A stretch of DNA of 64,000 nt from an uncultured Acidimicrobiales bacterium (GCA_963763885.1 CAVXQD010000007.1:125677-189676); one strand, 5' to 3'; shown: positions 21,665-37,014, counted from the stretch's first letter. Notes: generated from the letters alone by a model not told the origin. Made by a program: numbers and translations.

Positions 21665-21740
21665 TGGAGCGGACGACCGGATTCGAACCGGCGACCCTCA
21701 CCTTGGCAAGGTGATGCTCTACCAACTGAGCCACGTCCGC
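21665..21740 (-). tRNA. tRNA-Gly (GCC)
   Basis: GCGGACGTGGCTCAGTTGGTAGAGCATCACCTTGCCAAGGTGAGGGTCGCCGGTTCGAATCCGGTCGTCCGCTCCA: 76 nt, cloverleaf, anticodon GCC, encoded CCA. Confidence 0.98.
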
Positions 21741-21821
21741 AATGGGAGACTCACCTTAGCACGGCACTTCGACGGTCACTGTCACACACGCTCTTGCCGG
21801 AAGGCCAGCCTCAAGCCTGAC

Positions 21822-21894
21822 TTCGCGGCACCGAGACACGTTCGCGGCACTCACGCAGGATGCCTCAATGCCGCAAACGTTTCTGGGGGCCGCG
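21822..21894. repeat. 73-bp REP-like direct repeat, left copy
   Basis: 60/73 identical to 23055-23127; contains TTCGCGGCAC twice. Confidence 0.85.
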
Positions 21895-21931
21895 ACATCG
21901 GGACTGAGGCTGAGGTGTTCCCCCGAATTGA

Positions 21932-22975
21932 TCACGCGGACGTAACGGTCGGGACGATGGACCACCGGTGTGCGGCGCCTTCAACATGTCTGCCCGAAAC
22001 CTCCCACGAATTGCCGAGGTCTGGAGAACGCCGAAGGTGAGCTTTCACATCAGCGACGATATGCCCTGGTTCGAAAAGGGCCACTGTTGCGGGATACCGG
22101 AAGACATGGAAGCCGGGCGACAATCGCCGATCTCGTTCGTGATCAAGTTTTCGCCGATCCGGAAGGTCGTGCATGGAGCCGTCGATCTCGATAATGAGCT
22201 GTGCGGAAGGAATCATCAGGTCGGCAAAGTGCAGCCGAATGTGACCGTGGCGGTCCAGTGATGTGACGCAAGGCTGCACGATGACATCAGTGATCCCGGC
22301 CGCAAGCAGCGCGAACAGAACGGTCGAATCGGCGATGGAACCCGTTGGTCGACCGGGGATACGTCTGGCCAAAGCCCGCCGCACAGTCGAGACCCCCGGC
22401 TTGCGGCGCCATTGGTTGACCATGTCGACCAGTTCCGCCATCACGTCTTCGCGCCACTGGTCGGGACGTTTCGGATTCGCCCCACGCAGGCCAGATTCCA
22501 GGACGAGCGAAAACTCACGATCCGACATACCTGCCGCAACGTCAACCAAGGTTCGGGCGCGGTCCGTGAATCGGCGGCCGTCAGCATCGTGCAGCACGGT
22601 GTTCGGATCTGGCAGGTGACGGGTCCGAATCACCCGGAGGAGAGGCTGAAACGCAGAGGTCTGTGCGCGGAACGACCTTGTGCTGTTCGGAACCGTCACG
22701 GCGATCGACGTTGCGTCCCAACCTTTCGTCGAGTCAAACCCATGACGAATGGCGGCAGTCTCGTGGGACAAAACCGACTGCGGGCCACCCCGCTGCAGCA
22801 CTGCTTGGTGCCAACTCGCCGTGTTTTCGAGCGTCTCGGAAGTGGAGGTCGGCAAATACATGCCGTTAAAAACTCGCGACCAGCTGCCAGATTCGACTCG
22901 GTACTGGATGGCTGATGGGGTGTGTCCGGCAGCGAGAAGTGACTTGCGGATCAAAAGCGAATCTTGTGTGGTCAT
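21932..22975 (-). CDS. AbiEi-like N-terminal region plus DUF559/Vsr-like endonuclease
   Basis: GSWSRVFNGMY, VLSHETAAIRHG, TDRARTLVDVA, and C-terminal ADLMIP...IIEIDGSMH...DHERDRRL...VFRY. Confidence 0.75.
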   Translation of the reverse strand: MTTQDSLLIRKSLLAAGHTPSAIQYRVESGSWSRVFNGMYLPTSTSETLENTASWHQAVLQRGGPQSVLSHETAAIRHGFDSTKGWDATSIAVTVPNSTRSFRAQTSAFQPLLRVIRTRHLPDPNTVLHDADGRRFTDRARTLVDVAAGMSDREFSLVLESGLRGANPKRPDQWREDVMAELVDMVNQWRRKPGVSTVRRALARRIPGRPTGSIADSTVLFALLAAGITDVIVQPCVTSLDRHGHIRLHFADLMIPSAQLIIEIDGSMHDLPDRRKLDHERDRRLSPGFHVFRYPATVALFEPGHIVADVKAHLRRSPDLGNSWEVSGRHVEGAAHRWSIVPTVTSA

Positions 22976-23054
22976 ACACCACAAGTAACAGAAGGGTATG
23001 ACAATTCGCATCGATCTTGCATCGGTTCACGACACCACGTGCTGACACCCCGAG

Positions 23055-23127
23055 TTCGCGGCACTCAGGTATGTTCGCGGCACTCACGAAGGATGCGTCA
23101 GGGCCGCAAACGTTGCGGAGTGCCGCG
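23055..23127. repeat. 73-bp REP-like direct repeat, right copy
   Basis: Outer stem CGCGGCACTC/GAGTGCCGCG and inner palindrome CCGCAA-ACG-TTGCGG; 60/73 identical to the left copy. Confidence 0.85.
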
Positions 23128-23169
23128 CTGACGCAAAGGAATCCTGAAAGGGTGCTCCCGGATGGGGCT

Positions 23170-24705
23170 TTAGCGGGTGGGTCGACGCTTGGCGGTTGGC
23201 TTTGCCGACTTCGCGGCCGACTTGGTGGCCTTGGTGGCTTTGGCAGAGGACTTCGCTGGTCGCGGCTTGACCGGCTTGATCGGCTTGATCGGCTCGGAAG
23301 TGCTGGCACCGGCTCGGGTGATGGCAAGGAGCTCGTCGATGCCCGCGTTGCAGTGAGCTGCGAGGTCCCACACCCCGGACATGGTCTCTCGGCATGCGAG
23401 GAGGCCGACGTACATGACTCCCAGGTACGACATCACCGTCATGTTGAGGCCGATGCCATCGAAGATTGGACCCATTGGATACCACTCCACCAACCGCCCA
23501 CCCGTGCAGAAGAGGGGAACCTGTGGCCCTGGCACGTTGGAGATGGTGACGTTGTAGATGGGCTTGTGCCGATTGGCCAACCCCATCGACGAGTACAACC
23601 GCGCCGCACGAGCTGCGACTGCCGGAGCCGCGAACTCGGCCCAGTTCGACAACGTGTCTGCGCCAATTGCGTTGATTGAATCTTTGGCAATCTTGGTCTC
23701 GGCCTGAATGGATTGATACCGCTTCACCGGATCTGGTTCTTCGGTGGCGAGACGAACCAGCAGCTGGCTCACACGGTTTCCCATGGCGCCCTTCTGGTCC
23801 GTATTACGAACGCTCATGGGCACCATCGCGATGAGCGGCTCGGTTGGCAGCTCTCCCCCGTCCAGCAGATACTGCCGAAGCGCCGAAGCACACATGGCAA
23901 GCACAACGTCGTTGACCGTGCCCCCCAGCGCTGCGCGGACCTCTTTAATGTCGTTGAGAGGAACCTGTGTGTATGCGAACTTACGATGGGGCGTGATGGG
24001 TACGTTGAAGCTGGTTCGTGGGGCTGCGAACGGTGTTGCAGGCGCCGCATCTCCATCGGCCGAACGCTTGCGGAGGTTCAACGCAGCCTCGGCGGTGCGA
24101 CGGACAGCCTTGACTAGTTCGGCCGGCTGCTCCGTGAGGCTGCGCAACGCGTATGCCAACGTTTCGACGTCGGACGGGATGCGATCGCCGTGGAAGGCCT
24201 TGTCCGGCGGCGGAACAGGTGGCGCATCGGCCGAGAGATCCAGCAAGGCCGTAGTGAGTTCAGCCCCTGACGCACCATCGATGGCGGCGTGGTGCGTCTT
24301 GGTGATGAGTGCGATCCGTCCGCCCTCAAGGCCTTCCACCACCTCGAGCTCCCAGAGAGGGCGTGTGCGGTCTAGCGGGCGGGCCATGAACTGAGCCGCG
24401 TGTTCGGCCAACTCGGCCTGACCTCCCGGCGCAGGGAGCGCTGCTTGGCGCACGTGGTACTCGATGTCGAAGTGCGCATCGTTGGCCCACAACGGGTGAT
24501 GCAAGCCGAATGGAACGGTGACCAGCTTCCAGCGAAACGGCGGCAACAGGTGTAGCCGGCTCTCGACGCCAGCCTTCACACGCTCGAACGAAACGGCAGT
24601 TGGGTCGTCGCCCGGGTCGAACACGTAGACCGCTCCGACGTGCATGTGATTATTCGGCGTCTCCATGTACAGGAAAGACGCATCGAGGCCAGTGAGGCGG
24701 CGCAT
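23170..24705 (-). CDS. Wax ester synthase/diacylglycerol acyltransferase (WS/DGAT)
   Basis: MRRLTGLDASFL, PLDRTRPLWE, catalytic HHAAIDG, NVTISNVPGP. Confidence 0.95.
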   Translation of the reverse strand: MRRLTGLDASFLYMETPNNHMHVGAVYVFDPGDDPTAVSFERVKAGVESRLHLLPPFRWKLVTVPFGLHHPLWANDAHFDIEYHVRQAALPAPGGQAELAEHAAQFMARPLDRTRPLWELEVVEGLEGGRIALITKTHHAAIDGASGAELTTALLDLSADAPPVPPPDKAFHGDRIPSDVETLAYALRSLTEQPAELVKAVRRTAEAALNLRKRSADGDAAPATPFAAPRTSFNVPITPHRKFAYTQVPLNDIKEVRAALGGTVNDVVLAMCASALRQYLLDGGELPTEPLIAMVPMSVRNTDQKGAMGNRVSQLLVRLATEEPDPVKRYQSIQAETKIAKDSINAIGADTLSNWAEFAAPAVAARAARLYSSMGLANRHKPIYNVTISNVPGPQVPLFCTGGRLVEWYPMGPIFDGIGLNMTVMSYLGVMYVGLLACRETMSGVWDLAAHCNAGIDELLAITRAGASTSEPIKPIKPVKPRPAKSSAKATKATKSAAKSAKPTAKRRPTR

Positions 24706-36672: not shown

Positions 36673-37014
36673 CCCGTCGACGTTTTGCTGTGTAAGGACG
36701 CCCACGTTTCTCCAACCTTGCTCCCACAGCAACCAACTCGGTCGAAAACGCGCTCGAAACCGAGTTCTGAAGCAACGATGGTTGCGGAGACCCCAACGTT
36801 GGGCGCGCAGACACCAACGTTGGTTCCGGGGTAACGAGTGTTCGACGGGATACTGGAAGTCGGTGGCCCGATCTCGGAAGTGTGGGCGTGTCCAGCATGG
36901 CTGGGCGTGTCCTGCAGGCTGCACAACACGCCCGGCCATGCAGGAGACAACCACAGTCACGGGCCACAGCGGGCCGGGCCACGCGCCCGACAGCGGCGCC
37001 TGACCTTGGTTGGG
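36673..37014. other. Multi-hairpin intergenic region between convergent genes
   Basis: AACTCGGT/ACCGAGTT stem, two CCAACGTTGG palindromes, 16-bp stem 36895-36910/36926-36941, outer CCCGTCGA/TCGACGGG. Confidence 0.5.

Follow-up and report, generated by a model that had tools for sequence, protein, structure and literature searches.

The 64,000-nucleotide stretch of DNA analysed here (the window; C7:125677-189676 of a 4.98 Mb, 61% G+C assembly from an uncultured Acidimicrobiales bacterium) carries a gene, p1, that codes for a predicted nuclease and is bracketed by two copies of a dispersed extragenic palindrome. We lean towards reading this unit as a self-contained cassette, in which the protein would recognise the palindromes that frame its own gene and the copies scattered through the genome would be its gene-less population. 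The logic of this arrangement, in which copies of a dispersed repeat flank the gene cognate to them, resembles that of the REP (repetitive extragenic palindromic)/RAYT (REP-associated tyrosine transposase) systems and is strongly supported by the sequence comparisons described below; that the nuclease propagates the repeats is something that we infer.

The p1 cassette and its two palindromes

A repeat search placed a 79-nt direct repeat at 21816-21894 and 23049-23127 (81% identical, spacing 1233), and the palindromic termini set the limits of each element at 81 bp, both in the same orientation (Table 1). An earlier, sequence-only reading of this stretch had reported a gene bracketed by same-orientation repeats of 73 bp, each with a duplicated head, and both points stand: the repeats are now read as 81-bp palindromes, and the duplicated head corresponds to two TTCGCGGCAC boxes spaced 19 bp apart, with inverted boxes at the end of each element. 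The right copy, which has four boxes and 32-nt arms that are 78% complementary, is well preserved when compared to the left copy; it lies 76 bp upstream of the p1 start codon and is a candidate operator. The two copies share a private G>A change (CCGCAAACGTT versus CCGCGAACGTG in the other copies). Their identity to each other (77-81%) equals the family mean column identity (80%), and for this reason we rejected the idea that they are an unusually close pair produced by a recent duplication; the cassette in the window is old and syntenic in three species.

The p1 open reading frame (ORF) spans 21932-23011 on the minus strand, with its stop codon at 21932-21934, a likely ATG start at 22975 and an alternative ATG upstream at 23011. 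No second ORF, transposase or integrase was found within the unit between the palindromes, and no recombinase inside or adjoining it, in agreement with the earlier description of a unit that sits between tRNA-Gly and WS/DGAT without such genes. Two other identities were rejected. A generic terminator does not fit, because the palindromes lack a T-run and terminator calling picked up none of them. Nor does a tRNA-targeted integrative island: an integrase is missing, the unit is located 5' of the tRNA, and G002 has an intact tRNA at its empty site (throughout, G000 is the source genome and G001-G004 are species of the same genus).

Dispersed palindrome families with a shared layout

Mapping of the genomic copies of the repeat showed it to belong to a dispersed family, which we call A: a profile built from the copies found exactly 13 members, a covariance model gave the same count and on inspection all 13 of them lie between long ORFs. 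A family-blind scan of the genome for long palindromes returned 47 strong ones, most of which fall into families of a common design, in which elements of 75-110 bp end sharply in palindromic termini and each arm carries two boxes in direct orientation. The boxes are family-specific, 10-16 bp long and 19-22 bp apart within an arm. Besides family A (box TTCGCGGCAC), profile searches of the genome gave the copy numbers of family B (box CTTCGCGTCCC, about 17), family C (box TGTGCCGGGAWWTACG, 15), family D (box ACATACGCGCAACTYG, about 27) and family E (box GCAACCAACGTTGG, about 36); two further small families, F and G, were also found, and at least five families share the layout. The family F palindromes (GCGAGAGAGGTTGCCCCC...) at G000 C1:1097036 and C2:491804 and at L047 (G001:C152) have a different layout and no assigned gene, and in one spacer G001 has a family F palindrome where G000 has a family A copy.

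The element termini read GACKTCGCGG. Copies have sharp termini and are 80-90% identical from end to end, also in the loops and spacers, which argues that they descended from one another and are not converged sites. In the family A alignment 80% of the cells pair, a level that column shuffles reach as well; pairing is poor in the spacers that separate the boxes, and the arms show no compensatory covariation. Because pairing did not exceed the column shuffles, we rejected a hairpin under structural selection, and the hairpin reading of the repeats given earlier is not supported. Since the symmetry comes from four invariant boxes and covariation is lacking, the boxes look like double-stranded protein-binding sites.

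Palindromes of different families were also found side by side, at C7:819115-819572 and C7:919998-920443 of G000. One mixed site is an E-B-E-B tandem duplicate and another holds B, E and D copies, in that order, within 450 bp, which suggests that the families share insertion hot spots or that one element inserted into another.

Pairing of palindrome families with predicted nuclease genes

The paralogs in the genome comprise four long proteins and at least five short ones (about 250 aa, without the N-terminal ~60 residues), and these two subfamilies are weakly but detectably related. Same-family palindrome pairs about 1 kb apart bracket p1 (family A), p4 (C), p5 (D) and p6 (E), while p2 is followed, after 40 bp, by a family B copy and preceded by just one remnant box, and the G001 ortholog of p3 (62% identical) carries a family-G-type copy. 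The suggestion that each paralog has a repeat family of its own is thus largely right, with five pairs (A-p1, B-p2, C-p4, D-p5 and E-p6) and a sixth, G-p3, by way of the G001 ortholog. The source genome has one cassette per family, and the paralogs are 30-41% identical. The family A model cross-detects only family B, and p2 is the closest paralog of p1 (41% identity).

Chance pairing was rejected by permutation and random-window controls. When all palindromes were permuted, a gene of the superfamily bracketed on both sides appeared in 2e-4 of the shuffles versus 3-4 such genes observed, and a binomial estimate with palindromes confined to the intergenic 12% of the genome gave P(>=4 of 9) = 6e-10. 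Furthermore, none of 150 random windows of 900 bp was bracketed. Overall, the probability of the family-gene pairing arising by chance is about 1e-7 or less.

A family C pair at G000 C7:364231-365413 brackets an unrelated DUF4143 ORF (Pfam, 1e-24). DUF4143 as a second cognate family was rejected, since only 1 of 15 paralogs is bracketed and the case looks incidental.

Predicted fold and motif of the p1 protein

Pfam matched p1 only to DUF559 (PF04480), at the C-terminus (E 7e-7, 29.5 bits against a cut-off of 20.6), while PADLOC AbiEi profiles matched residues 3-154 (1.5e-9) and Pfam AbiEi_4 matched the paralog p3. An AlphaFold2 model of p1, made from a 14-sequence alignment, had a mean pLDDT (predicted local distance difference test) of 89.5 and a pTM (predicted template modelling score) of 0.86. 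Foldseek matched the first ~200 residues to Streptococcus agalactiae AbiEi (6Y8Q, E 4.9e-6) and Rv2827c (1ZEL, 9.5e-5), and the C-terminus to PvuRts1I/AbaSI, the DUF559 structure 3HRL (E 7.6e-10), I-Bth0305I and Vsr. Residues D252, E263, D265, G266, D278, R281 and R293 do not vary within the family, and the acidic motif (D252, E263-x-D265-G, D278, R281) aligns with 3HRL and PvuRts1I. By its modelled fold p1 is an AbiEi-antitoxin-like module fused to a predicted Vsr/DUF559-type nuclease, which bears out the AbiEi/DUF559 identity assigned to it earlier.

AbiEi and Rv2827c each bind to their own promoter, at two and four inverted repeats of ~23 bp (PMC7319586). By this analogy, the AbiEi-like part of p1 probably reads the boxes, and the upstream palindrome is probably an autoregulatory operator.

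Gain, loss and decay in related genomes

The relatives are Acidimicrobiia metagenome-assembled genomes (MAGs). In G003 the order tRNA-Gly, palindrome, gene, palindrome, WS/DGAT is kept and the p1 ortholog has two stop codons; in G001 the ortholog carries a frameshift and, of the two palindromes, just the left one can be recognised. Cassette orientation is identical in G000, G001 and G003. In G002 the tRNA and WS/DGAT lie about 190 bp apart without the gene, and the spacer holds one solo C-like palindrome. Family A has its 13 copies where the gene is intact (G000), 2-4 where it is a pseudogene (G001 and G003), and none, even at E<=1, in the gene-less G002 and G004. The G001 and G003 copies that were checked are orthologous to those of G000; the solo copy C3:683290 is missing from the G003 site, and the place of the C3:665149 copy is taken in G001 by a family-F-type element.

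Pairings are also kept among orthologs, as the p4 ortholog (G001:C163) is bracketed by family C and the p5 orthologs (G003:C150 and G001:C24) by family D. The co-variation of repeat and gene that the sequence-only reading put forward as a check stands in part: orthologs keep their family and gene-less species lack family A, but families C and D persist at high copy number in genomes whose cognate gene has decayed or went undetected. Empty sites, which it had also raised, do exist, at the G002 locus (with the solo palindrome of another family) and in G014 and G008 for the G019:C50 cassette described below.

Across the bacterial family and order, 49 homolog loci divide into 10 bracketed on both sides, 15 with one palindrome and 24 with none. 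In all 10 of the loci bracketed on both sides the flanks belong to the same family, each locus having its own box sequence. Comparable palindromes next to the gene are present at loci of other Acidimicrobiia and of Aeromicrobium, and they were not seen in the Mycobacterium, Rhodococcus and Kribbella loci fetched.

The genes behave as selfish and dispensable, being often pseudogenised and outlived by their repeats; in both G001 and G003 the orthologs of p1 and of p5 are pseudogenes. In related environmental strains, represented by three public runs (X1, X3 and X4), p1 carries an in-frame deletion of 204 bp with 6-bp microhomology (Table 1).

Insertion of whole cassettes

The identity between flanking palindromes ranges from ~80% in the window cassette to ~96-99% in G019:C50 and G019:C79. 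The young pairs are clearly direct repeats, and direct orientation holds for 10 of the 14 flanking pairs. Two congeners, G014 and G008, lack the G019:C50 cassette at the orthologous spacer, which contains nothing but a small unrelated hairpin and is without a cognate palindrome, indicating that the whole unit with both palindromes is an insertion. Orthologous empty spacers are too diverged for insertion junctions or target duplications to be read. In addition, a Myxococcaceae MAG (G041) has at least six copies (96-97% identical) plus two more (99%) of a 1.47-kb unit that encodes a homolog between box-bearing, hairpin-forming ends, and its genome holds 183 boxes versus 2 for a reversed control. 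Gene-less tandem box arrays with a 56-59 bp period are also present in this genome (e.g. C15:97546-97912 and C4:86677-86918).

Other features of the locus

The promoter-like motif TTGTCATACCCTTCTG listed in Table 1 is also found upstream of the G003 p1 ortholog and of the paralog p2. More generally, a motif TTG(T/A)CATACCCT(T/C), which looks promoter-like, lies ~20 nt upstream of the starts of p1, p2 and the G003 p1 ortholog, and it also precedes a small, unrelated gene located next to a copy of family A; the sites are at window 22989-23004 on the minus strand, C7:~895690, L002 ~1925-1945 and to the right of C3:156134. A scan with a consensus promoter found nothing. The window also contains a weak family E copy (27.7 bits) at ~36712-36802 (C7:162388-162478). 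Finally, a perfect A30T30 palindrome occurs 10 kb before the window, at G000 C7:115654-115713, and may be an assembly artefact.

Table 1. Features at the p1 locus, in window coordinates.
Feature	Position	Strand	Remarks
tRNA-Gly(GCC), left neighbour	21665-21740	-	synteny anchor in G001, G002, G003
Left family A palindrome (gene-distal, 3' side)	21819-21899	.	profile search E 1.6e-17; covariance model 84.9 bits
TTCGCGGCAC boxes of left palindrome	21822-21831 and 21841-21850		right-arm inverted boxes degraded
p1, AbiEi-like (winged helix-turn-helix and middle domain)/Vsr-DUF559-like predicted nuclease, 347 aa	21932-22975	-	
In-frame deletion in p1, 204 bp, ~residues 248-315 (nuclease core)	22030-22233	-	joint 22029>22234 in X1, X3, X4
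Conserved promoter-like motif TTGTCATACCCTTCTG, between upstream palindrome and p1 start	22989-23004	-	read from sequence
Right family A palindrome (gene-proximal, 5' side)	23052-23132	.	profile E 5e-18; covariance model 80 bits
WS/DGAT-type ORF, right neighbour	23170-24705	-	synteny anchor

Proposed mechanism and alternative explanations

We propose that the cassette consists of a palindrome, a promoter region, the nuclease gene and a second palindrome, and that its protein would specifically recognise the boxes of the palindromes that frame its own gene. The scattered copies could be moved, or their similarity maintained, by the protein acting in trans, or they could be relics of cassettes that collapsed through recombination between the two direct repeats. 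The Vsr-type nuclease would nick or cut at or beside the bound palindromes, and host repair or recombination would then copy, homogenise or move the elements, both of which are steps that we infer. Box binding of the AbiEi type is likely, and nuclease-driven propagation is possible.

Several observations weigh against this proposal. In the source genome no palindrome flanks p3 or three of the short proteins, four paralogs in all, and the short subfamily (p5 and p6) lacks the N-terminal winged helix yet has cognate palindromes. In two G019 proteins the second acidic position of the ExD motif is an N, and strand transfer is not something that a hydrolytic nuclease can carry out on its own. No target-site duplication or target motif is visible in the aligned flanks. 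The excision of the gene through its direct repeats suggested earlier found no supporting joint, as neither excision nor inversion joints were present in public contigs, which are short and of very low depth. Furthermore, family D has ~30 copies in each of G001 and G003 despite the p5 pseudogenes, family C has ~5 copies in G003, where a p4 ortholog was not detected (in an assembly that is 78% complete), and G002 has a C-like subfamily without an identified cognate gene. Repeats are thus kept where the gene is dead or was not found, so that their persistence needs no intact gene. Lastly, co-occurrence at the level of the genus is confounded by phylogeny, since G000, G001 and G003 share everything.

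Among the alternatives, the one that survives best, which we nevertheless consider unlikely, is that only the whole cassette moves and that solo copies are just remnants of recombination between the flanks, like solo long terminal repeats. It would account for young cassettes having near-identical direct flanks and old ones diverged flanks, for whole cassettes being mobile or multi-copy, and for genes that are often lost while solos persist without them. What it does not accommodate is the ratio of one cassette per family to 12-35 solos with no intermediate second cassettes, the solo at the G002 tRNA-Gly site, which belongs to another family than the cassette found there in G000, G001 and G003, and the gene-less tandem box arrays of the Myxococcaceae genome, which it leaves unexplained.

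The full-length identity of 80-90% with sharp termini, which indicates descent and not convergence, speaks against another alternative, namely that the palindromes are operators and nothing else. According to this, they would be sites for an AbiEi-type repressor, those at the gene acting as autoregulatory operators and the scattered ones being regulatory or decoy sites spread by ordinary duplication or recombination, and the nuclease part would have an unrelated repair-type role or none. The binding of two to four inverted repeats by AbiEi and Rv2827c in their own promoters (PMC7319586), the location of the right palindrome 76 bp upstream of the start codon, the conservation of the boxes without covariation and the persistence of repeats where the gene is dead are all in its favour. 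We regard it as quite unlikely because most cassettes also have a palindrome downstream of the gene, palindromes come and go at orthologous spacers, whole cassettes are inserted or multi-copy, and the frequent pseudogenes are unlike a maintained regulator.

That the palindromes are independent elements of the MITE (miniature inverted-repeat transposable element) or REP kind, moved by some other enzyme and landing beside these genes (or the genes beside them), seems very unlikely to us. Different families do cluster, with spacers acting as hot spots, and a family C pair surrounds the unrelated DUF4143 ORF, but the other 14 DUF4143 paralogs are not bracketed and the cassettes hold no transposase. 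The pairing is in addition strictly family-specific in 5-6 cases here and at 10 loci elsewhere, with both flanks always of the same family and the family conserved among orthologs. A programmed switch, in which a recombinase flips or removes the gene through the flanking repeats, is hardly credible: DUF559 is enriched (odds ratio 14.3) among predicted programmed-inversion targets (PMC9881135) and each palindrome offers inverted segments, but there is no recombinase in or next to the unit, public contigs of very low depth hold no inverted or excised joint, the orientation is the same in G000, G001 and G003, and the scattered family copies would go unexplained.

Comparison with known systems

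The closest described system to the proposed self-contained cassette is that of the REP/REPIN-RAYT systems (REPtrons) of Proteobacteria (PMC3116915, PMC3337134, PMC5581495). As in these, extragenic palindromes are dispersed in tens of copies, a single-copy gene is framed by its own family, several gene/repeat pairs coexist in one genome and the gene locus is vertically inherited. Unlike in REP/RAYT, the enzyme is AbiEi-like plus Vsr/PD-(D/E)xK and not an HUH Y1 transposase of the IS200/IS605 type, the repeats are four-box elements of 75-110 bp with no GTAG tag and no hairpin covariation, the flanks are mostly direct and not inverted, copies are fewer, the genes have often decayed to pseudogenes instead of being conserved, and the hosts are Acidimicrobiia. 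Membership in REP/RAYT is excluded. The label REP-RAYT-like given to the unit earlier fits insofar as the gene is enclosed by copies of a dispersed repeat cognate to it, but the enzyme is not a RAYT and the likeness is one of logic only.

The unit also shares features with the AbiE type IV antitoxins (PMC7319586, PMC3985639; 6Y8Q, 1ZEL), namely the fold of the first ~200 residues and, as for AbiEi and Rv2827c, two to four inverted repeats of ~20 bp arrayed directly in front of its own gene. It differs from AbiE in having no adjacent AbiEii (DUF1814 nucleotidyltransferase) toxin gene, with one ORF between the palindromes, in its C-terminal predicted nuclease, and in that the array is present downstream of the gene too and scattered as a discrete element. 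With Vsr-like nucleases (3HRL, PvuRts1I/AbaSI, Vsr and the homing endonuclease I-Bth0305I) it has in common the C-terminal fold and the motif D...ExDG..H...D..R; unlike them, it has no methylase or mismatch-repair context, is not in an intron or intein, and is fused to an AbiEi-like module and tied to a repeat family of its own. Like an insertion sequence (IS) or MITE, it is a one-gene unit of ~1.3-1.5 kb bounded by symmetric protein-site arrays, with short gene-less derivatives, and the near-identical, multi-copy whole unit typical of an IS was found only in the Myxococcaceae MAG and not in the source genome. Unlike IS and MITEs, it has no known transposase family, and its flanks are complete palindromes in direct orientation instead of simple terminal inverted repeats; no target-site duplication is visible in the aligned flanks, and the divergence of the orthologous spacers prevents a reading of the junctions.

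CGTC-tagged REPs without a dedicated transposase have stems of 8-9 bp and occur in other phyla (PMC3733652); being much smaller and from other phyla, they were set aside as a loose lead. A literature search found no published description of such a cassette and no link of DUF559 to repeats or mobility, and the nearest item was a table row in which DUF559 proteins are enriched among predicted inversion targets (PMC9881135).

A broader claim, which we put forward tentatively and rate as falling short of an even chance, is that AbiEi-Vsr cassettes form an undescribed class of mobile element or replicator that extends from Actinobacteria (Acidimicrobiia, Aeromicrobium) to Myxococcota. In such a class a site-specific hydrolytic nuclease, and not a transposase or recombinase, would multiply, homogenise or relocate the cassette and its 80-bp four-box derivatives through host repair, and several mutually specific lineages would coexist in one genome.

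Biological significance

If the reading of a self-contained cassette is correct, it would raise the mechanistic question of how a hydrolytic nuclease could spread DNA, and it could provide naturally orthogonal protein/DNA-site pairs, five or six of them from this genome. It would also give a function to a large group of actinobacterial 'DUF559 / AbiEi-domain' proteins and explain many of the intergenic palindromes in these genomes. To our knowledge, REP/RAYT is the only well-described bacterial repeat family with a dedicated single-copy enzyme. The cassettes would then be a second, independent invention on a nuclease scaffold, and the partnership of a repeat family with its own enzyme would be a general evolutionary outcome.
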